Shown here: in pieces, positions 4,079 to 21,455 of the stretch
Numbering within the stretch: position 1 is the first letter of the stretch
How the letters are laid out: each line of letters opens with the position of its first letter
Source: Phage NC-G
Length of the DNA: 64,000 nucleotides
Sequence record: MK310184
Strand: one strand, 5' to 3'
Position numbers and translations under genes: made by a program
Notes under the pieces: generated by a model
Database searches by the model: none
What the model was told of the DNA's origin: nothing
Seen by the model: the letters and a program-made list of their open reading frames with translations, nothing else

Positions 4079-4528
4079 TTAGAACAACGAACTCAGGACC
4101 TTATACATCGACTGACCCATGACATATTCCCATTGCGGACGTTTAATCAAGGCGAAAGCATCGAACTCAGGAATACTACGACCGTCAGGGAACGTATGAT
4201 AAGCCGTACATTTGCAATCCTTGAACTGCTCGTGTTCCACAGGCACTGTATATAAGAACAGATGTAGATTCTTATTGCTTGAATATTTGAACTCACCTAG
4301 GTCTTTCAGGAATGCAGGATCGTATGCTGTGAATCCAATCTCTTCTTCAGTTTCACGCATAGCCGCTTGAATTGGTTCTTCACCCGGTTCAACATGACCT
4401 TTAGGAATGTCCCATTTATGATGCATATTCTCTGGATTACGAGAGCCTGTTACACGACCCATAACTAATTCTTTATCAACGGTCATGAACAAAATACCGG
4501 CTGATAGTTCTTTAACTTTCTTACTCAT
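4079..4528 (-). CDS. nudE: Nudix hydrolase
   Basis: Nudix box [22 protein letters not shown]; position directly next to e as T4 e.1; start set at MSKKVKEL, whose ATG overlaps the upstream stop. Confidence 0.85.
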
Positions 4529-4760
4529 CGTCTCGTTTCCATGATTGGTTAAAAATATCTTGCATAATAATAATTTCAAGGCGTGTTTCTGTTGATGGAC
4601 TTTCACTATTAGATACTTGAACCATATAGTCGGAAATAGGTTGGAACATATCCAAGTCGCTTTCCAAATCTTCTTTTATTTTCTCTTCTGATGTTCCTGT
4701 GTCATAGGAATACAGATATGAATCACACGACTCGGATTTAATATAAATCGCAATACTCAT
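4521..4760 (-). CDS. Hypothetical small acidic protein, 79 aa
   Basis: ORF in the track; its TGA overlaps the nudE ATG. Confidence 0.45.
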   Translation of the reverse strand: MSIAIYIKSESCDSYLYSYDTGTSEEKIKEDLESDLDMFQPISDYMVQVSNSESPSTETRLEIIIMQDIFNQSWKRDDE

Positions 4761-5344
4761 TTACGGCATTCCTCAATAAAAGAATTCAATGTATTTTTCT
4801 TAGTGATATCGTCGTATAGCTTTTTAACTTTAGAAATACGAAAAGGCACTTCAATAACTGCAGTCCATAAAAATGATGCGATAAGACCTAAGATAGCCGC
4901 AGACATAGCTGAAGCGAATACAGAAATAGGCAGGTCGTTATCTGTTGTCAGGAAAAACCCTAGGAGTGGGAAAAATAATATACCCATCCAAACATAGAAT
5001 CTAGAACTCACCAATTTGTCATATTCATCACTCCACGTACGAAAACCATATTTTTCACTATAACAAATCAATGGGTCCGGTGTTTGTTCTTTATGTGGTT
5101 TCGCTTGCCACCCATTTACGATATAACCCATTCTGAACTCCTCAATTAAAAGTCGTTTCATTTCAGCAGTACAGCCTGACCAATCTACTGTACTGGCTGA
5201 AATTCCTTCATCACCATCATCAAGATTCAGCCAGGACTTTTTAATAATCATATTCTCACCACTTGGGATAATAATTCCGGCATTTTCTGACCTACGGATG
5301 AAGTTTGTATCAATACCCATACACCCAGGTTCATAAAGGGCCAT
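4757..5344 (-). CDS. Hypothetical membrane protein, 195 aa, ending in FIEECRK
   Basis: Two hydrophobic segments (FYVWMGILFFPLLGFFL and AAILGLIASFLWTAVI); C-terminal motif shared with two other ORFs. Confidence 0.5.
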   Translation of the reverse strand: MALYEPGCMGIDTNFIRRSENAGIIIPSGENMIIKKSWLNLDDGDEGISASTVDWSGCTAEMKRLLIEEFRMGYIVNGWQAKPHKEQTPDPLICYSEKYGFRTWSDEYDKLVSSRFYVWMGILFFPLLGFFLTTDNDLPISVFASAMSAAILGLIASFLWTAVIEVPFRISKVKKLYDDITKKNTLNSFIEECRK

Positions 5345-6030
5345 TACCAGCCCTCCATAGGGAATTCCAGATAAACTTGGGCATTAACGCGGATTTCATT
5401 GGTAATATTTTTAACACGGTCAGTGTTACGAGATACACGTCCAAACCAGCGCCAGCCGTTACTTACCGTACGAGAACCAGTATGCCAGGTTTGCCAATCA
5501 AACTGCAAGAGTGTACGGTCCGGAGCTTCCCACTGTTCTAATTCACCTGATTCAATTTTGGCCAAGACTTCTTTATGCCATTGGCGATAAATCAATTCAC
5601 CTTCTGGGATTTCACTAAAGGTGGCTTCACCGGTAGCAAAATGGGTAGGACACACATCAGCGTTAACAAGACCAAGAATGTGTTCAGACAAATAGTGAGG
5701 ATTGTCATAATCGGGTTGACCTGCAGTAATAAAATGTTGGCCCGTTGGAATAGGTGGACGTGGAACATCGTCGTGGTGATAACCTGGGATAGCCGGATAC
5801 CAGCCAGGCATCAACATATGCACACGTGAATCAAACACTACTTGATCATTATTCCAATCATCAGGCAAGTTCATAATAAAAGAGCGAGTAATAGGACCAC
5901 CATTATTATAAGCAAATTCTAAACTACAGTTGAAGAACATAGGCTCGTTCTTGATTTTATCATTAGAAATACCGCCAGCAAAACCACCTACTGCACGAGC
6001 TTTAGAATTAAAAGTTTTCGGACCGTTCAT
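5344..6030 (-). CDS. Hypothetical protein, 228 aa
   Basis: Long ORF, same strand, abuts neighbours. Confidence 0.5.
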   Translation of the reverse strand: MNGPKTFNSKARAVGGFAGGISNDKIKNEPMFFNCSLEFAYNNGGPITRSFIMNLPDDWNNDQVVFDSRVHMLMPGWYPAIPGYHHDDVPRPPIPTGQHFITAGQPDYDNPHYLSEHILGLVNADVCPTHFATGEATFSEIPEGELIYRQWHKEVLAKIESGELEQWEAPDRTLLQFDWQTWHTGSRTVSNGWRWFGRVSRNTDRVKNITNEIRVNAQVYLEFPMEGW

Positions 6031-6044
6031 AATATTTTCCTCGC

Positions 6045-6257
6045 TTACTTTTTGTTGAAAAAGTACATTTTACCTTTAGGAGATAAGGATACACGAAGTG
6101 CGTTACCAATACCAACTGAACATTTAACCAGGTCAGCAGATTTCAATTCACCAAATGCTTGACGAAGGTCACCGTCACGAGTGTTAACCATCAGACATTT
6201 AGCACCAGCTGCACGAACTTCGTTTAACATGTTGATTGCTTGGTTAGAAAGTTTCAT
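6045..6257 (-). CDS. Hypothetical small protein, 70 aa
   Basis: Start at MKLSNQ preceded by GGAGAAT; promoter cassette directly upstream. Confidence 0.45.
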   Translation of the reverse strand: MKLSNQAINMLNEVRAAGAKCLMVNTRDGDLRQAFGELKSADLVKCSVGIGNALRVSLSPKGKMYFFNKK

Positions 6258-6284
6258 TTTATTCTCCATTTCACTCTGTTGTTT

Positions 6285-6325
6285 TGATAGGTCTATAGTA
6301 TCACACCTATAGACCTTGTACACTG
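6285..6325 (-). promoter_or_regulatory. Early promoter plus stem-loop cassette (PeSL-like)
   Basis: Minus strand GTGTACA, then GGTCTATAGgtgTGATACTATAGACC (9-bp stem enclosing an extended -10), then conserved leader CTATCAAAACAACAG. Confidence 0.5.
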
Positions 6326-6335
6326 TTTTATGCAA

Positions 6336-7295
6336 TTATTTTTCGAAAGGGCGAATTAAATGTTGGTTACGCTTAAACCGGTTGATGTAGTCACTTTCAC
6401 CTAGGGTCTTATACATATTCACTACAGCTTGGTAGTTTTCCCAGGCGTACTCACGGAACCACCCGGAAGTAATTGAGGTACACACTTTCTCAAGAGCCAT
6501 ATAAAAACTTAACGATGGTGAAATATTAAAGTCATTAGGAACCTGCGAACGTTCTAGTGCCAACACACAGGTTTCTTCATATACACCAGCCAGTTTAATA
6601 GCTTCAGGCAAAGCTTCAAACTTCTCACGCGAGGTCATGACTTCAGAACCATCTTTCATATAAAAGGTATATGCCGGACGTCCAGCCAATGCCACGGCTT
6701 CATGAATAGAGTCATGGTCTAATGTATAAATGGTATCATTAAAGAACGATGATTTGTTAACGTCTAATTTAGGGTGGGAATAGCTCAACGTTTCTTTCTG
6801 ACGTTGCAGCATGATTTCTTGGAGCTCTTCATTCAAGGTTACACCTTTATTACGAAGGTATTTGATGTGAGACATCGTCTTCAGAAAGAACGGGTTGTTC
6901 TTCAAATATCGATGGCTCATTTTGATAGCCAGACAGATATCAGGCGTGGCCCAATAGAAACCAGTAAGACGGTCCTTTTTAATATGATTTTCAGCATATT
7001 TCAAAAGACGATAGCTTGAAGTGAAATCTTCGTCTTGGAGCTCACCGGTGATTTCTCGTACGTTAGTCAGAGCACGGACAATATAAGCTTCAAAATAGGT
7101 TTCTTTACCATTGTACATACATTTAAAGGCTTGGACATCAGGGTTATCCACAGGAACATGGGCACCAAACATCCGAGCTTTAAAGTGATTCCACGAGCCT
7201 TGGTCGGCAATGAAATCCCAATCAGAATTTTCGATATACTTACTTTCAATCAAACCAGCGTGGTGCAGTGCACGAGAACCAATAACTAGCATCAT
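6336..7295 (-). CDS. Hypothetical protein, 319 aa
   Basis: Long ORF with ATGATG start and GAGGAAAATATT Shine-Dalgarno; no family recognised by eye. Confidence 0.55.
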   Translation of the reverse strand: MMLVIGSRALHHAGLIESKYIENSDWDFIADQGSWNHFKARMFGAHVPVDNPDVQAFKCMYNGKETYFEAYIVRALTNVREITGELQDEDFTSSYRLLKYAENHIKKDRLTGFYWATPDICLAIKMSHRYLKNNPFFLKTMSHIKYLRNKGVTLNEELQEIMLQRQKETLSYSHPKLDVNKSSFFNDTIYTLDHDSIHEAVALAGRPAYTFYMKDGSEVMTSREKFEALPEAIKLAGVYEETCVLALERSQVPNDFNISPSLSFYMALEKVCTSITSGWFREYAWENYQAVVNMYKTLGESDYINRFKRNQHLIRPFEK

Positions 7296-7308
7296 AATAT
7301 TTTCCTCA

Positions 7309-7476
7309 TTAATAAAGACGAGTTACTTCATATTTACCCAATTCAGATTTTTTTGCTTCAATTCGAGTAACAGCAAGATTAGCAGCCTCTAGTGAAGAAA
7401 ATTGGACCACTTGGGAAGTATTCTGCCTTACGCCACCTTGTGGGTGAGTAACAAAAACAATAAGAACATTATACAT
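7309..7476 (-). CDS. Hypothetical small protein, 55 aa (below the ORF-track cutoff)
   Basis: ATG preceded by the same GAGGAAAATATT module used by the adjacent gene; translates MYNVLIVFVTHPQGG... Confidence 0.35.
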   Translation of the reverse strand: MYNVLIVFVTHPQGGVRQNTSQVVQFSSLEAANLAVTRIEAKKSELGKYEVTRLY

Positions 7477-7497
7477 AATATTTTCCTCAGAGTAAAC

Positions 7498-7737
7498 TTA
7501 AATTTCAGCAACATAATCGTTATGCAACTCCCACATATCATCAGAATTATTCTTAATGATAGGAATTATCTCATTAGAGATTTCTTCTGCATAAGGGTCA
7601 TTGATACAGTGGGCATCTTCAAAACGAACACCGTAATCGGACTTCTTATAGGCAAAGCCATAAATCTTTTTAAACTTGGCACGACTAATTCGTACCGGCT
7701 CACCAGACTTATCAGACAGTGGAGAGTAATACCACAT
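7498..7737 (-). CDS. Hypothetical small protein, 79 aa
   Basis: ORF with GAGGAGAACATT Shine-Dalgarno. Confidence 0.4.
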   Translation of the reverse strand: MWYYSPLSDKSGEPVRISRAKFKKIYGFAYKKSDYGVRFEDAHCINDPYAEEISNEIIPIIKNNSDDMWELHNDYVAEI

Positions 7738-7781
7738 AATGTTCTCCTCATGTTTGTGTAGGGTAATAGTAACACAAGTTT

Positions 7782-8111
7782 TTAGAGTTGTACATCACTT
7801 CTGCAATATTCTAAAAATAATTTATCGTTGTCTACGGTATCCCAACGTCGCCAAGATGGATTCCAGACCAAAGCATTGTCACCGCAATCATTGAGCTTAA
7901 AATGGTCATAGTACATAGCTATGCGTTTAGTCTCGTCACCGGAGAACCCTAGTATAGGCTCGCCGTGGGTATGATACATATGATGGTGCATTGAGAGGTC
8001 GCATTTATAAAACATCTCACGTTTACCACGAACGAACAAGAAAGCTTGCCCGTTCATATAGAATTCTTTATCGGTTTTCAAAAGATATTTGAATACTGAA
8101 TCTTTGTGCAT
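7782..8111 (-). CDS. Hypothetical His-rich protein, 109 aa
   Basis: Start at MHKDSV with GGAGGACTT Shine-Dalgarno; contains HHHMYHTHGEP. Confidence 0.45.
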   Translation of the reverse strand: MHKDSVFKYLLKTDKEFYMNGQAFLFVRGKREMFYKCDLSMHHHMYHTHGEPILGFSGDETKRIAMYYDHFKLNDCGDNALVWNPSWRRWDTVDNDKLFLEYCRSDVQL

Positions 8112-8141
8112 AAGTCCTCCTACCACATCCTTGTGGCTATA

Positions 8142-8369
8142 TTATTTTCCTAACGAAATACGAGTAGGTTTTTTGCCAAAGTATTCTTCATAAGAACCAT
8201 CTAAACGTCCTGCTTTAGACCGGCAATATGAATCATACTTTTTGTAATAAGTCATCTCAGTATTATAACGTGGGTGTCTATCAGCCATAATAATACTTAG
8301 TGGCCAACCTTTGGCATAATCGCGAAGACCATTTATTTTACGAATGTATCTTTTCTTTAATTTTAGCAT
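8142..8369 (-). CDS. Hypothetical basic small protein, 75 aa
   Basis: ORF in the track; ATG overlaps the upstream stop. Confidence 0.4.
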   Translation of the reverse strand: MLKLKKRYIRKINGLRDYAKGWPLSIIMADRHPRYNTEMTYYKKYDSYCRSKAGRLDGSYEEYFGKKPTRISLGK

Positions 8370-8587
8370 GAGCTCGGATACCAGATTTTACCATCGGAAC
8401 GAGCAACGAAGGTGCGACCAGCTTCTTCACCATAACAAGAGCTATTCAGCCAATCTTCAAGACGAACTTCACCATCGTAATCGTCTAACTCAACACCAAA
8501 ACTTTGAGCAGAAGCCATATCTTTTACTTTCTTATACAATGCAGCCAGTTCAAGAGCAGCTTTTTCTAATTCATTAATATCAGACAT
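8363..8587 (-). CDS. Small acidic protein, tandem family member 5, 74 aa
   Basis: C-terminus IWYPSSC; N-terminal amphipathic helix; stop plus GGTGATAAA plus ATG coupling with the upstream gene. Confidence 0.5.
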   Translation of the reverse strand: MSDINELEKAALELAALYKKVKDMASAQSFGVELDDYDGEVRLEDWLNSSCYGEEAGRTFVARSDGKIWYPSSC

Positions 8588-8596
8588 TTTATCACC

Positions 8597-8806
8597 TTAG
8601 CAAGACATAGAGGATGTAAACCAGAAACCTTCACCATCTGGGATACCGTAATCATCACGGACCCATTCGTAATCATCATATTCCGGACTAGAAGCCGGAA
8701 TATATTCTTCGCCACCGGCGTGGAAGTGCTGACCTGTTTCGTCAGCCACGGACTGGCCTTTACGTACTAATTCACGGATTTGTTTTTCAATTTCATCAAT
8801 AGTCAT
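8597..8806 (-). CDS. Small acidic protein, tandem family member 4, 69 aa
   Basis: C-terminus FWFTSSMSC; same architecture as neighbours. Confidence 0.5.
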   Translation of the reverse strand: MTIDEIEKQIRELVRKGQSVADETGQHFHAGGEEYIPASSPEYDDYEWVRDDYGIPDGEGFWFTSSMSC

Positions 8807-8815
8807 TTTATTACC

Positions 8816-9013
8816 TTAGCATTCGTAAGAGGACGATACCCAAGAGGTACCGCTAATAGTAATACAACCGTTATAAAGCGTGATATGTCGTTCTAGGTCA
8901 CGAACACCATCGATATAGATATCGGCTTCTTCACGTTCTTCTTTACAAATCTGGATAACGTTTTCAATAGCTGCGGCGGCAGTACGGATTGCACAATCTA
9001 ATTCACGAGACAT
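8816..9013 (-). CDS. Small acidic protein, tandem family member 3, 65 aa
   Basis: C-terminus SWVSSSYEC. Confidence 0.5.
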   Translation of the reverse strand: MSRELDCAIRTAAAAIENVIQICKEEREEADIYIDGVRDLERHITLYNGCITISGTSWVSSSYEC

Positions 9014-9022
9014 AATATTTCC

Positions 9023-9304
9023 TTAACATTCAGAAGAGGAGGACACCCAGCCGCCATTTTCCAGGTCGGTTGTGTAGTCATGGGTATTAACAATAGCCCA
9101 TTCAGGATGACCATCTTCTTCCCAATGAGCAAGGTCAGCTTTCAAGGCGCCAGGAGAATAATAGTCACCGCCCATACCGCGAGCAGGGTATATATTAAAA
9201 TGAGTCTCATATTTGTCTGCAATTTCCTCAGCGCGGCGAATAGCTTCATGGATTTCTTTTACTGCGGCCAGAAGCTCTGGATGGTTGTGGTTATCATTCA
9301 TCAT
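9023..9304 (-). CDS. Small acidic protein, tandem family member 2, 93 aa
   Basis: C-terminus GWVSSSSEC. Confidence 0.5.
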   Translation of the reverse strand: MMNDNHNHPELLAAVKEIHEAIRRAEEIADKYETHFNIYPARGMGGDYYSPGALKADLAHWEEDGHPEWAIVNTHDYTTDLENGGWVSSSSEC

Positions 9305-9313
9305 AATAGTTCC

Positions 9314-9604
9314 TTAGCACAGCGCTGAAGAGGAGACCCAAGCACCAACTGTAACGACGCCATTTTCAACTTCACCGCCGTTGTTTTCGATTTCATCTTT
9401 AAACCACTGGGAGCATTCATAACCGACCGGATAGTATGTACGACCTGAGCCATAATCACCGGTCCCGAATTGAATACCGTACTTATCGGCAATAGCTTCA
9501 CATTTATGTTCGATGATATCTACTTTACCGAGTAGAGCATAGATAGCCTTTTCTGCAGATTTCTCGTCATTGTATTCGGGGATTTCAATTTCAATTTTAT
9601 TCAT
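9314..9604 (-). CDS. Small acidic protein, tandem family member 1, 96 aa
   Basis: C-terminus AWVSSSALC. Confidence 0.5.
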   Translation of the reverse strand: MNKIEIEIPEYNDEKSAEKAIYALLGKVDIIEHKCEAIADKYGIQFGTGDYGSGRTYYPVGYECSQWFKDEIENNGGEVENGVVTVGAWVSSSALC

Positions 9605-9954
9605 GATTTACATTCCTTAATAAAGGTTTCAAGGTCATTACATTTGGTTTGTTTTACATACTCATTATAATTAGCCATCTCTAAAGCATATCTCTTACGG
9701 ATGGGAGCATTCAAAGCATTTGTGTGGCAAATATCATACACAACAGGGATAAAATAAGCTACAACTGCCGGGGCGATTATCATATAGAACCCCATCTCAA
9801 TTGGCATGACTCCTTCTATTGCAGCCATAACCGTGGTCATTACCAGGCCAACCAGGCCGCCGAGCATACCGGTGGCAATTCCTAATAATAAATTTGAGCC
9901 AATATCATATTCAGCCAATTGATAAACATGTGATGAAAGACTAGGCCGCTCCAT
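9601..9954 (-). CDS. Hypothetical membrane protein, about 117 aa, ending in FIKECKS
   Basis: Track ORF begins at a GTG; the internal ATG at MERPSL has an AAGAGG Shine-Dalgarno; two hydrophobic helices. Confidence 0.45.
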   Translation of the reverse strand: MERPSLSSHVYQLAEYDIGSNLLLGIATGMLGGLVGLVMTTVMAAIEGVMPIEMGFYMIIAPAVVAYFIPVVYDICHTNALNAPIRKRYALEMANYNEYVKQTKCNDLETFIKECKS

Positions 9955-10483
9955 TTTGAACCTCTTTAGCGTATTCACGACATTCTTTAATAAAATTATT
10001 AAGCTTACGTTGCTGTTTACGACTTTCTAATGTATACTCGTCAGCCAAGGCAAGAAGCTCATCTTTATCGTAATTTTTAATATCCGAATAACTCGGGCGG
10101 CGGTCGACCATTCCAAATACATCACCGTTTTCTAGTGCCACATAACATACTAAATGATAATCATCATCTGCAACATTAATATGTACACAGTCAGTACTCT
10201 CGTTTAAAGAATATACTGAATATCTCACTCCGGCGAATTTAGCGCTCTGTACACCCAGATTTATGTCAATAATTTCTAAAGCTTCTGCAAAAGAAAGGTC
10301 TTCAGCTAAAGCAAAGATAAAGGGTAATTTGGTAGTATCGCCACGGCTAGATGTTCTGCTTAAGAAATCGTTTGAATAGCCTAGGTCTTGGCGAATTCTA
10401 TAAAGAACTGAATTGGTTTCATGGGAAAGACCACTATTTTTAAACCAATCAATATTTGATATAAGGTTATCATATAAACTCAT
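9941..10483 (-). CDS. Hypothetical protein, 180 aa, with FIKECR near the C-terminus
   Basis: ORF in the track. Confidence 0.45.
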   Translation of the reverse strand: MSLYDNLISNIDWFKNSGLSHETNSVLYRIRQDLGYSNDFLSRTSSRGDTTKLPFIFALAEDLSFAEALEIIDINLGVQSAKFAGVRYSVYSLNESTDCVHINVADDDYHLVCYVALENGDVFGMVDRRPSYSDIKNYDKDELLALADEYTLESRKQQRKLNNFIKECREYAKEVQNGAA

Positions 10484-10531
10484 AATATTCTCCTCTCCTC
10501 CAAATAGGGAGACCGAAGTCTCCCGGTAACA

Positions 10532-11125
10532 TTACTTAAGTGAATTAATGTAGTCTTCGATATCAGCTGAAGTCGTATCCATTCCAACTTGAGGGCCTTT
10601 AAACGTTTCTACACGCATCAGGGTGTCTTCAATATCAATCTTAGTCAGTGCAGCGATTTCAACAACGTCATCGGCAGTAGCAATACCCAATGCAGCCATA
10701 TTACGAGTTTCACGGATATATTCCAACTTAACTGCTAGTTCCTGTCGAGAGTCATCAAGTTCCTTGACCTTCAGTTTAATTTCATTACGCATTTCGATAT
10801 AATCGTCAGCTTTCTTACGAAGCTGTGTAGCCGTACGACGATAAAGGAGGCCAAGTTTAGCATGCACCTGGACATCGGCGCCTTCTTTAATCAGTTTACG
10901 AATTTCGCGTTCTTTAGAAGCAGCGAGCTGGTCTTTTTCATTTGCCAATGCACGAATGCGTTTTTCTTCATTCACCGACTTAACATGAGCGGTCTGGAGT
11001 TCAGTAATTTTATCAATCAGGGTAGAAGCAGCTTTAGTGTACTGGTCTTCGATTGACAGGTTCTGAGTCATTGCAGTACCCAGTTTAGAACGGATGAATT
11101 CAACAATTTTCTTTAAAGTATTCAT
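10532..11125 (-). CDS. Coiled-coil protein, possibly PspA/IM30-like, 197 aa
   Basis: Start at MNTLKK with GAAGGAAAT Shine-Dalgarno; long charged heptad-like helices; promoter cassette upstream. Confidence 0.45.
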
Positions 11126-11149
11126 AGTATTTCCTTCAGTCGGTTGGTA

Positions 11150-11190
11150 TTTTGTAATCCATGAGGACATTATACCCTGTCCTCTGAGGG
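11150..11190 (-). promoter_or_regulatory. Early promoter plus stem-loop cassette (PeSL-like)
   Basis: Minus strand GTTTACAaccctcaGAGGACAggGTATAATGTCCTC: -35, -10 and a GAGGAC/GTCCTC stem around the -10. Confidence 0.5.
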
Positions 11191-11200
11191 TTGTAAACAT

Positions 11201-19713: not shown

Positions 19714-21455
19714 TGATTAACATGTCTGATAACGTAAGTTGGTTCGTCGGTGTAGTTGAAGACAGAATGGACCCACTCCAACAAGGCCGAGTACGCGTAC
19801 GCGTCTGGGGTATGCATCCATATGAAAAAGTACAAGGTCCTGTAAAAGGCCTTCGTACAGAAGATTTACCATGGATGTCTGTATTAATGCCTACATCTTC
19901 TGCCTCTGTTTCAGGTATCCAAACCGCTATGACCGGTATGGTCCCGGGTACACAAGTTTACGGACACTTTCTTGATAAGTGGAAATTAAACGGGCTTGTC
20001 CTCGGTACATACGGTTCGGCTTCAAAACAAAAGGCAAATCCAAACGAAGGTTTTAGTGACCCTACAGGACAGTATCCACTTTATTTAGGTAATGATGCCG
20101 CTGCACTAAACCGAGGTGGTGAAGTTGGATATGATGCCACTTCTAACGTAATACAAGATGCAAACACCGATGTAGGTATTAATCCGGATGGATTAGATTT
20201 AAGCCAAGTTAAGCCTGATGATAATCCTAATTTCACAATAGAAAACATGCTTCATCGTGATGAGGGTCTTCGTCTGAAGGTATATTGGGACACCGAAGGA
20301 TATCCTACCATAGGTATAGGTCACCTTATTACTCCACAACCTATTAGAGATATGACTCAGATAAACAAAATATTATCTAATCAAATAGGTCGAGAAGTTA
20401 AAGGTAATCCAGGTGCAATATCAATGGACGAGGCTTCTAAGTTATTCCAAGAAGACCTTAAAAAAGTCCAAAACGATATAGGTCGACATAGTGTTGTAGG
20501 TCCGGTTTACAATAAAGAAAACCGTTCAAGGCAAATGGCCCTTGAAAACATGGCGTTCCAAATGGGATTAGGCGGACTTGCTAAATTCCGTGGTATGCTC
20601 AGTGCTATGTTAATAGGCGATTATAAAAAGGCATTTGAGGAAGCTCGTAATTCAGTATGGTTCAACCAAACTAAAGGCCGAGCATCAAGGGTGTCAATGA
20701 TTATCCTTACAGGTAATATGGAATCATACGGTATTATGGCCCCTAAAGAAAGAGAATTTAATGGCCGTTCTTATAGGATGATTCAAACTTTTGCAGCCCC
20801 TACAAATTCCGACCCAGCCGACCCATGGACTCCGGAAGATACAAGGATTCTTTTTAAAGAACCTGATTCTAGTTATAAAGGCGAATACCCGTATGTCCAA
20901 ACCATGCAAACTGAAGGCGGGCATATCCAAGAATTCGATAACACCCCAGGGCAAGAACGTTACCGATTAATCCACCCTACAGGTAGTTACGAAGAAGTCG
21001 CTCCTGACGGACGTAAAACTTCTAAGACGGTAGCCGACGGGTATTATATGACCCAAGGCGATTCTAATACTTATGTTGGTGGTAATAATAAAGTCAATAT
21101 AGGTGGCGATGAAACCTATTATAATATGGCAAACGTTCGACGTCAAACCGACGGTTCTGAAAGCATCCATATTCGTGGTAATGAAACCAAAACAGTAGAA
21201 GGCGACGGGACCCTTATTGTTAAAGGAAATGTTACGGTTATTGTTGAAGGCAATGCTGATATAACTGTTAAAGGTGATGCAAAAACCTTAGTCGAAGGCA
21301 ACCATGATTATACAGTAAACGGGAATGTTAAGTGGTCAGTAAATGGAAACGTCGATATGACTGTTGCCGGTAATTGGTCTGAAACTATGTCGACCATGAG
21401 TTCTATTGCATCCGGTCAATATACTATTGATGGTTCGAGGATTGACATTGGCTAA
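19713..21455 (+). CDS. 5: Baseplate hub / cell-puncturing protein gp5 with lysozyme domain
   Basis: 580 aa; internal lysozyme domain (GLRLKVYWDTEGYPTIGIGHLIT) resembling gene e; C-terminal beta-helix VxGxxxxx repeats. Confidence 0.95.
   Translation: MINMSDNVSWFVGVVEDRMDPLQQGRVRVRVWGMHPYEKVQGPVKGLRTEDLPWMSVLMPTSSASVSGIQTAMTGMVPGTQVYGHFLDKWKLNGLVLGTYGSASKQKANPNEGFSDPTGQYPLYLGNDAAALNRGGEVGYDATSNVIQDANTDVGINPDGLDLSQVKPDDNPNFTIENMLHRDEGLRLKVYWDTEGYPTIGIGHLITPQPIRDMTQINKILSNQIGREVKGNPGAISMDEASKLFQEDLKKVQNDIGRHSVVGPVYNKENRSRQMALENMAFQMGLGGLAKFRGMLSAMLIGDYKKAFEEARNSVWFNQTKGRASRVSMIILTGNMESYGIMAPKEREFNGRSYRMIQTFAAPTNSDPADPWTPEDTRILFKEPDSSYKGEYPYVQTMQTEGGHIQEFDNTPGQERYRLIHPTGSYEEVAPDGRKTSKTVADGYYMTQGDSNTYVGGNNKVNIGGDETYYNMANVRRQTDGSESIHIRGNETKTVEGDGTLIVKGNVTVIVEGNADITVKGDAKTLVEGNHDYTVNGNVKWSVNGNVDMTVAGNWSETMSTMSSIASGQYTIDGSRIDIG

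Follow-up and report, generated by a model that had tools for sequence, protein, structure and literature searches.

The short motif FI[KE]EC[KR], carried near the C-terminus by three genes of the window (the whole 64 kb stretch of DNA analysed here), is probably the conserved core of a protein tail that marks the e.2/e.3/e.4/e.5 cluster, selected as a peptide and most likely acting as a cytoplasmic docking helix. The phage can be assigned to Dhakavirus as a JS98-like T-even phage, JS98 being the closest match to the window (92.4% identity), and the three ORFs, all on the minus strand, are recognizable as the counterparts of T4 e.2, e.3 and a divergent e.5. The e.2-e.6 genes are conserved in T-even phages and, to our knowledge, no function has been assigned to them since the sequencing of the T4 genome.

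Three genes of the window share a C-terminal motif

By translating the 64 kb window in six frames, we found exactly three matches to FI[KE]EC[KR], each near a C-terminus. As the preliminary description had claimed, they belong to the ORFs at 4757..5344 (...TLNSFIEECRK before the stop), 9601..9954 (...DLETFIKECKS before the stop) and 9941..10483 (C-terminal stretch ...KLNNFIKECREYAKEVQNGAA). The DNA pattern TTTATTRARGAATGY also has exactly three matches in the window, all on the minus strand and in frame. A chance origin was rejected, since about 0.006 matches are expected per six-frame translation from the window's own amino-acid frequencies and none of 100 first-order Markov simulations gave any match. 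The core pattern of the tail as defined below occurs only in these three genes and in two short, probably spurious ORFs (20724..20924 and 20967..21170).

The first ORF (195 aa) was identified as the T4 e.2 homologue by its match to phrog_2203 (E=4.1e-69 over residues 32-195, covering the full-length profile) and by synteny with nudE, which it adjoins. JS98 annotates e.2 from an internal start at 5251, giving 164 aa, and the N-terminal 31 aa are conserved in 195-aa homologues. As in the e.2 family, it has an N-terminal soluble domain (W..DDGD.GI..VDW.GC), followed, according to transmembrane prediction, by two transmembrane helices (116-134 and 146-164) and a basic cytoplasmic tail. In a precomputed table, PF26896 (Phage_T4_Y06M) is found on 29/29 e.2 homologues. 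The tail motif L-N-S-F-I-E-E-C-R is encoded at 4763..4789 (TTG AAT TCT TTT ATT GAG GAA TGC CGT), its F, C and R showing no variation in five genera.

The second ORF (117 aa) is the e.3 homologue, with a full-length profile match to phrog_2330 (E=6.3e-46). RB14 e.3 falls in the same PHROG (E=5.9e-59) and aligns with the window protein over 114 columns (hhalign 95.7%). Here too, two predicted transmembrane helices (22-40 and 54-72) precede a basic cytoplasmic tail, with the motif L-E-T-F-I-K-E-C-K at 9607..9633 (CTT GAA ACC TTT ATT AAG GAA TGT AAA). The e.3 family shows no variation in the last 10 residues and, in a search of 1.84 billion proteins, all full-length e.3 representatives kept the tail.

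The third ORF encodes a divergent e.5-like soluble protein (180 aa) without a transmembrane helix. It belongs to phrog_8788 (E=2e-112) and matches the e.5 family phrog_2607 weakly (E=0.002), the related PHROGs 13418 and 22749 forming a bridge to that family; its gene occupies the position of e.5, between e.6 and e.4/e.3. When compared to RB14 e.5 by BLASTP, only the 15-residue tail aligns (LxxF[IV]KECREYxK). The motif L-N-N-F-I-K-E-C-R lies at 9977..10003, and the third position of this tail is K, A or T in relatives.

The three ORFs had been described as otherwise unrelated. This holds for the third, which has only about 14 residues in common with the other two, but not for the first and second, since the last transmembrane helix and tail of the former align with the latter (hhalign 87.7%, 55 columns). 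Pfam (in a set without PF26896), NCBIfam and PADLOC gave no name for the three proteins.

The tail recurs in seven genera of Tevenvirinae

FI[KE]EC[KR] is the core of a longer C-terminal tail, hydrophobic-x-x-[F/W]-[I/V]-x-x-C-R, with a few basic residues after it in most cases. A look at related phages, as had been proposed, located this tail in seven Tevenvirinae genera (Dhaka-, Gapriver-, Tequatro-, Mosig-, Kanagawa-, Karam- and Jiaodavirus), where each genome has 2-6 proteins bearing it; these proteins fall in at least 15 PHROG families. T4 e.2-e.5 (UniProt Y06M-Y06P; PF26896 and Phage_T4_Y06O, PF26873; PHROGs 2203, 2330, 2604 and 2607) have the same position, between nudE and e.6, the same architecture and the same tails as the window cluster. 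However, the window is without e.4, and its e.5-like protein has a body with little relation to T4 e.5. Across the T4 genome as a whole, the core pattern is found only in e.3, e.5 and a frameshifted e.2, and the RB14/T4 tails read ..NLNNFITECRKLK in e.2, ..FV[SI]DCRKIK in e.3, ..FVKESRCKSQN in e.4 and ..FVKECREYVK in e.5. In the Slopekvirus phage Rpl1, the nudE neighbourhood has other gene content and no tails.

Within each family the tail is invariant down to 43-53% identity. Its two middle residues vary (KE, EE, TE, KG, IG, DD, SR, NY, RM, RS), and the Cys, present in 30 of the 36 distinct tails, is replaced by Val, Ile or Ser in the e.4 family. FVKGCRNGR is common to a Kanagawavirus pair whose codons for it differ at four synonymous sites. 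This pair was the only one that appeared to co-vary, and homogenisation of tails within genomes by gene conversion was rejected as a general pattern.

The proteins e.2, e.3, e.4 and several other small ones are remote paralogues with two transmembrane helices and then a predicted basic cytoplasmic helix ending in the tail, while in the soluble e.5 proteins this tail is attached to an unrelated body. Databases hold e.2, e.3, e.4 and e.5 as separate families of unknown function, and the literature that we covered on e.2-e.5 and Y06M-P, from which the 2003 T4 genome review was absent, makes no mention of a shared tail.

Conservation lies in the peptide rather than in the DNA

Two readings of the motif had been put forward in the preliminary description: a recombination linker or junction module, and a short C-terminal tag. 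The former would be a DNA repeat selected as a linker for shuffling cargo genes, like the PeSL cassettes of T4-type phages, and we consider it distinctly unlikely. First, by aligning the three junctions with their flanks, we found that identity (80-93%) is confined to 15 coding bases, as the amino acids require, while the flanks (0.23-0.40) are at background (0.26 +/- 0.065); no conservation extends beyond the coding motif. Second, 11-12 of 12 bases match within the motif, compared to 10.1 expected from identical amino acids and codon bias. Third, information content is three-periodic among the 36 distinct DNA versions, with variation at third codon positions, and Arg is written as CGT, CGC, CGA, AGG and AGA. 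Together, these comparisons indicate that selection acts on the amino acids of the tail rather than on the DNA, and that the DNA match follows from coding. As a conserved peptide, invariant within families and recurring on cluster proteins in seven genera, the tag reading was borne out. Besides peptide selection, there may be a weak additional preference at the DNA or RNA level, e.g. for an A/U-rich stretch upstream of the Shine-Dalgarno (SD) sequence, as TTT ATT ... GAA occurs in all three window tails (joint probability about 0.025 under codon usage).

The Shine-Dalgarno sequence of the next gene overlies two of the tails

The motif had also been placed at the ribosome-binding site of the next gene. 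This is the case at two junctions, where GAGGAA in the E-E codons of e.2 (4769..4774) and AAGGAA in e.3 (9613..9618) each stand 8 nt upstream of an ATG overlapping the stop codon. Downstream of e.2, this ATG (4758..4760, overlapping as ATGA) starts a translationally coupled, RB69 ORF130c-like gene of phrog_2900 (4521..4760, minus strand); downstream of e.3 it lies at 9602..9604. Both regions (4757-4774 and 9601-9618) thus have an SD-like hexamer 5-10 nt before an overlapping start. It is not the case for the third gene, whose motif reads AAAGAA, 11 codons before the stop: e.3 has its own SD (AAAGAGG, 9961..9967; ATG 9952..9954), and the motif at 9980-9994 has no coupling role.

Translational coupling through an SD embedded in the upstream ORF is a general organisation of bacterial and phage genes. 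The two junctions, with the same ATGA overlaps and a hexamer 8 nt upstream, are of this kind, but such coupling accounts only for the choice of the K/E-E codons and not for the conserved F, I/V, C and R. Since the genes lie head to tail and the stop of one overlaps the start of the next, the tail's purine-rich K/E/R codons also write the next SD, which is an overlay on the motif and not its cause. The converse, in which the motif arose by convergence as an A/U-rich enhancer, SD and spacer read in the upstream frame, is extremely improbable, and comparison of the tails already contradicts it as the sole cause. It would fit the hexamer placement in two of the three genes, the SD-like AGGAG/GAGG held in different codons by many tails of other genera and the choice of AAG over AAA, which tracks the presence of a downstream start: AAG is retained where an ATG follows at 8 nt (this rare codon of the e.3 tail is kept in all relatives), while e.5-like genes have AAA, GCT or ACT. 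However, it is F, I/V, C and R that stay fixed, with the two residues in the middle free to change. Nor is the spacing between the Cys codon and the next start constant (5 to 23 nt), and the e.5 tails show conservation between T4 and Dhakavirus despite lying 10-17 codons ahead of the stop.

Genes are lost and alleles replaced by crossover at the junctions

The e.4 member of the cluster was deleted in the lineage of the window. Phage dhaeg and CJ20-like contigs keep the e.5-like, e.4-like and e.3 genes in a row, and comparison with the hybrid junction of the window (AAAGAGGTTCAAAATG, SD and start codon of e.3, 9952..9967, minus strand) indicates a clean loss of 346 nt, from ATG to ATG, exactly between two imperfect 16-nt SD-ATG repeats (13/16 positions match). 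In addition, the transmembrane core of e.3 is a swapped allele, 47-64% identical within flanking DNA that is 90-100% identical, its limits being the junction at one end and the conserved tail helix at the other (right boundary), and QL01/VR5-type phages have a mosaic e.2 whose middle part is T4-like. All three observations favour a junction module, and this part of the linker idea stands: junctions and tails are the only conserved DNA between divergent neighbours, and crossovers that delete a gene or replace an allele therefore fall in them. The linker idea fails as the reason for the motif, and the repeats between which e.4 was lost are SD-ATG modules, not FIKEC codons.

PeSLs are likewise short conserved gene-boundary sequences in hyperplastic regions, where recombination between copies removes or swaps genes. 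However, they are intergenic and consist of a strong sigma-70-like promoter and a terminator stem-loop, whereas the window junctions join overlapping genes and their conserved sequence is coding. We found no terminator-like site and no intergenic space at the three junctions, and their sole promoter-like match (9/12, 9603..9632) is within chance numbers. A PeSL identity was thus rejected.

Deletions between short direct repeats in T4 are known from the classical rII studies. The loss of the e.4-like gene is of the same kind, but in this case the two repeats have a function, as SD-ATG modules belonging to consecutive paralogues, so that the deletion leaves both neighbouring genes intact.

The tail as a probable hydrophobic helix face

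On a helical wheel, the residues L, F, I, C and Y occupy 320-80 degrees, and L, F, I/V and C (with Y in e.5) fall in one 120-degree arc. In an AF2 model of e.2 of moderate confidence (pLDDT 64; about 50 in the N-domain and about 58 in the tail), TM2 runs on as a single helix to the C-terminus and includes the tail; the model of the e.5-like protein (pLDDT 38) is unusable. Because the hydrophobic residues share one arc and the Cys gives way to Val or Ile in e.4, we read the tail as the hydrophobic seam of a helix tip; most likely it forms the hydrophobic side of a cytoplasmic helix used for docking or assembly.

The Cys could instead be the point of the motif, the tails giving thiolates to a shared metal site, a redox function or a covalent subunit link. 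Its presence in most of the distinct tails and the further invariant Cys or His in both e.2 and e.5-like proteins agree with this, but its replacement in the e.4 family does not, and its place in the middle of the hydrophobic face is that expected of a packing residue. A disulfide is unlikely because the tail is cytoplasmic by the positive-inside rule, and overall we regard this explanation as unlikely. Still less probable is a reading in which the tail serves as a C-terminal tag for degradation or sorting, recognised by a host protease or insertase. It would suit a motif found near the C-terminus of many unrelated bodies and the ...NGAA end of the e.5-like protein. Nevertheless, an ssrA-like degron at the extreme C-terminus would have a fixed end position and conserved last residues, whereas the motif lies 1-17 residues from the C-terminus and what follows it is unconserved (NGAA, NGTA, NA, NV or ISAK).

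Possible partners and implications

If the tail is a docking helix, the proteins would use it at the inner face of the membrane to bind either one another or a single shared partner, and it could, for instance, recruit soluble e.5 to the membrane paralogues. A bolder version, possible but rather unlikely, makes the tail a common adaptor by which up to six different small inner-membrane proteins and soluble e.5 plug into one hub, of host or phage origin, e.g. the neighbouring and highly conserved e.6. The transmembrane heads would then be swapped and diversified between phages, as might be seen in 47% nucleotide identity in a head beside 100% identical tails.

The e.6 homologue (10532..11125, minus strand; phrog_1203, E=8e-84, and JS98 annotation) is the first gene of the e.6-e.5-e.3 run and is 52-97% identical across genera. 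Upstream of it, a sigma-70-like consensus match (TTTACA-17-TATAAT, 11/12; 11169..11197, minus strand) is likely the start of the tail-gene transcript. A PspA/IM30-like partner role for e.6, considered for its coiled-coil look, was dropped, with no supporting match among PDB sequences: phmmer and a 7-sequence profile returned nothing (best E=0.29, LptE). In Pfam, e.6 gave only a sub-threshold APG6_N match.

On present evidence the locus is not mechanistically surprising. It offers a worked example of a selected peptide and a ribosome-binding site written in one DNA stretch, of clean gene loss guided by conserved gene ends, and of allele replacement. Were the adaptor version true, the best-studied phage would have, in e.2-e.6, a modular membrane-targeted system, e.g. 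for superinfection exclusion or counter-defence. The shared tail, confined in T4 to the e.2-e.5 cluster, joins at least 15 database families into one group, and a 9-residue peptide with three near-invariant residues provides an experimental handle for seeking a common partner and for asking whether these proteins work jointly.

Three genes of the e.2-e.5 region share a C-terminal tail

The region 4400-10600 matched Escherichia phage JS98 over its full length with 92.4% identity and had matches in 228 T-even phage records in all, which makes the source of the window a Dhakavirus (Straboviridae, Tevenvirinae). Every gene of this region lies on the minus strand, and ATGA-type overlaps pack the genes closely. 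According to the JS98 annotation and PHROG profiles, the neighbours are lysozyme e, nudE, e.2 and then, as far as e.6 and e.8, a series of small hypothetical genes.

The motif FI[KE]EC[KR] had been noticed at the ends of three ORFs (4757..5344, 9601..9954 and 9941..10483), and the sequence of each bears this out. The window has exactly three copies each of FI[KE]EC[KR] and TTTATTRARGAATGY, all inside these ORFs; for FI[KE]EC[KR], the chance expectation given the window's amino-acid usage is 0.006, and none of 100 Markov-1 simulations contained a match. The common stretch, hereafter the tail, is a little longer than first noted (L-x-x-F-I-x-E-C-[KR]). Across the 64 kb, the relaxed core pattern [FW][IV]..C[KR] recovered only the three tail genes and two short minus-strand ORFs, 20724..20924 (..GWVGICRG..) and 20967..21170 (..FFVTTCRVD), which are probably spurious.

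The three ORFs are known T4-family genes of unassigned function. First, 4757..5344 (minus strand) is the e.2 homologue (phrog_2203, E=4e-69). Second, 9601..9954 (minus strand) is the e.3 homologue (phrog_2330, a family also matched by RB14 e.3), aligning with RB14 e.3 by hhalign at 95.7% over 114 columns. Third, 9941..10483 (minus strand) occupies the position of T4 e.5 and weakly matches the e.5 family (E=0.002), the BLASTP alignment of this e.5-like protein with e.5 being limited to LxxF[IV]KECREYxK. Profile alignment of e.2 with e.3 covers the last transmembrane helix and the tail (87.7%, 55 columns), and that of e.3 with the e.4-like gene covers 47 columns, whereas the e.5-like protein has just ~14 residues in common with e.2 or e.3. 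The e.2 and e.3 ORFs are therefore remote paralogues, and in the e.5-like ORF the tail is joined to a soluble body unrelated to theirs.

We also observed that the e.2 ORF runs 31 codons upstream of the JS98-annotated start (5252..5344, minus strand). This extension (MALYEPGCMG...) is conserved in 195-aa homologues, with Y-E-P-G-C-M-G invariant, and begins with an ATG that shares bases with the stop codon of the preceding gene (TAATG). In Dhaka- and Gaprivervirus, the protein actually made is probably this longer form. In the T4 reference (NC_000866, 67490..67960), a frameshift breaks e.2: the annotated CDS has 309 nt, leaving the C-terminal part with ..NLNNFITECRK in a different frame, and the T4T annotation lists e.2a and e.2b. 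RB14 and most relatives have an intact e.2, so laboratory T4 appears to be without functional e.2.

Selection on the tail

The preliminary description had considered either a recombination linker or junction module, or a short C-terminal tag. We aligned the three window junctions with their flanks and found that conservation does not extend beyond the coding motif. Over the 15 motif bases nucleotide identity was 80-93%, but in the flanks (48-60 nt) it was 0.23-0.40, against a random background of 0.26 +/- 0.065. Where the residues are identical (F, I, E and C), the junctions agree at 11-12 of 12 bases, compared to 10.1 expected from codon usage. Moreover, among 36 distinct versions of the tail DNA, information content is high at codon positions one and two and low at the third; Arg is encoded by CGT, CGC, CGA, AGG or AGA, and Leu by TTG, TTA, CTT or CTA. 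In Kanagawavirus, two tails with the same nine residues differ by four synonymous changes. Together, the background-level flanks, the third-position variation, the varied Arg and Leu codons and the synonymous differences bear the signature of selection on the peptide. As a cause of the motif, a DNA linker is thus not supported, since identity goes only as far as the amino acids require.

The motif had also been described as encoding the ribosome-binding site of the next gene. This is true of the e.2 and e.3 ends, where GAGGAA or AAGGAA, spelled by the K/E-E codons, stands 8 nt ahead of the following ATG, and in e.3 the rarer AAG codon is kept in every relative. It does not apply to the e.5-like tail, which has no start codon nearby and carries AAA, or even Ala or Thr, at the position where e.3 has AAG. 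In other genera the Shine-Dalgarno (SD) sequence falls in different tail codons, such as AGG AGA of C-R-R, and the two middle tail residues vary freely. These observations make the SD sequence an overlay, which shapes codon and residue choice at variable positions, and not the origin of the motif.

The tail across T-even phages

We then looked for the tail in related phages. In RB14 and T4 (Tequatrovirus), it ends e.2 (..FITECRKLK), e.3 (..FV[SI]DCRKIK), e.4 (..FVKESRCKSQN) and e.5 (..FVKECREYVK). PhAPEC2 (Mosigvirus) has two tails, Q7622 (Kanagawavirus) three, with FVKGCRNGR common to two of them, CkP1 and EnC07 (both Karamvirus) three and six, respectively, and the Jiaodavirus-like Mexia four to five. 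At least 15 PHROG families contain tail-bearing proteins, most of them ~100-130 aa long with two TM helices, alongside one soluble, e.5-like protein per genome (~200 aa). The tails have [F/W]-[I/V]-x-x-C-R as consensus core, and three positions ahead of it stands a hydrophobic residue. Within a family the tail does not vary, even where identity over the remainder of the protein goes down to 43-53%. Only nine e.3 relatives came out of a profile search against 1.84 billion representative proteins, and every full-length one has the tail. T4, over its complete genome, has the core pattern in e.3, e.5 and the C-terminal frame of the frameshifted e.2 only. Invariant within families and recurrent across genera, the tail supports the C-terminal tag proposal at the peptide level and is a hallmark of the whole e.2-e.5 cluster. 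We found no description of it in the literature on e.2-e.5.

Other features of the region

Five small tandem minus-strand paralogues (8363..8587, 8597..8806, 8816..9013, 9023..9304 and 9314..9604; 24-31% identical; phrog_899, RB69 ORF136c-139c-like) all end in W-x-[ST]-S-S-(x-x)-C, where Cys is the very last residue; no columns other than W, S, S and C are invariant. Two Karamvirus loci, L009 and L011, have this ending too (..WVSSSEMC, ..WESSSC, ..WLSSSDMC and ..WYTSSC). It is a second, distinct C-terminal Cys motif of the same hyperplastic region.

The sole real intergenic gap of the e.6-e.5L-e.3 run (e.5L, the e.5-like gene) is 10484..10531 (minus strand). It holds a hairpin with a 7-bp G+C-rich stem and a UUCG loop (GGGAGAC-UUCG-GUCUCCC), followed by GGAGGAGAGGAG as the ribosome-binding stretch of the e.5-like gene; taken as a whole, the 76-nt segment has an unexceptional fold (z = -1.1). 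The e.6 homologue (10532..11200, minus strand) shows strong conservation between genera (52-97% identity; 77 columns invariant among 7 sequences) and has a predicted coiled-coil-like character. Searches of Pfam, NCBIfam, PADLOC and PDB sequences gave no match for it, and the label "host specificity protein" in some records has ACLAME grounds only.

Recombination at conserved gene ends

The e.4-like gene is absent from the window, JS98 and CLB_P2, whereas e.5L-e.4L-e.3 is the order in phage dhaeg (91% identical, of the same genus) and in CJ20-like contigs. In the alignment, a clean gap of 346 nt runs from ATG to ATG between AAAG(G/A)GGTTCAAAATG and AAGGAGGTTCGTAATG, and the window junction 9952..9967 is a hybrid of these two bounding sequences. 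As the T4 order is e.5-e.4-e.3, the absence is most simply read as a deletion. Compared with phage vB_EcoM_FB, DNA identity is 85-98% through e.6 and e.5L, drops to 47-64% over the e.3 N-terminus and transmembrane hairpin (~9945-9703, minus strand), and is 100% again from 9662 through the tail (flanking genes, 85-100%). The e.3 tail is thus constant, and its "head" is either swapped or evolving fast. In QL01/VR5-type phages, e.2 combines a Dhakavirus-like N-domain, a T4-like middle and the common tail. Because they are conserved, these ends act as homology anchors between which variable cores are lost or replaced, so that the linker proposal survives as a by-product, a consequence of conservation and not its cause. 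We rejected the junctions as PeSL cassettes: these are defined by a promoter and stem-loop in the intergenic gap, which the window junctions do not have.

The VR7 locus (L008, 3180..3687) shows another rearrangement at the e.5/e.4 spot. Other small ORFs replace the e.5-like gene, the e.4-like gene is N-terminally truncated (88 aa, beginning MCIVGV), and the upstream ORF ends in an alternative frame of the lost e.4 N-terminus.

A possible role for the tail

Pfam, NCBIfam and PADLOC name no function for the three window proteins, and we found no relevant papers on e.2-e.5. Hydropathy and the positive-inside rule predict that both ends of e.2 and e.3 are cytoplasmic, with no K/R in the periplasmic loop and 7-8 in the tail. 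In the AF2 model of e.2 (pLDDT 64; hairpin 70-84, tail ~58), TM2 runs on as one helix to the C-terminus, and a long C-terminal helix is seen in the e.5L model too, although that model is unreliable. A helical-wheel projection puts L, F, I, C and Y in the arc 320-80 degrees, Cys being central. That this Cys serves thiol or metal chemistry is less likely, since the e.4 family has Val, Ile or Ser instead. A degradation or sorting signal is likewise a less likely role. Given the predicted topology, the modelled helix, the one-sided residues and the replaceable Cys, we favour the inference that the tail gives the tip of a cytoplasmic helix its hydrophobic seam, through which the e.2-e.5 proteins may assemble with each other or with one shared partner.
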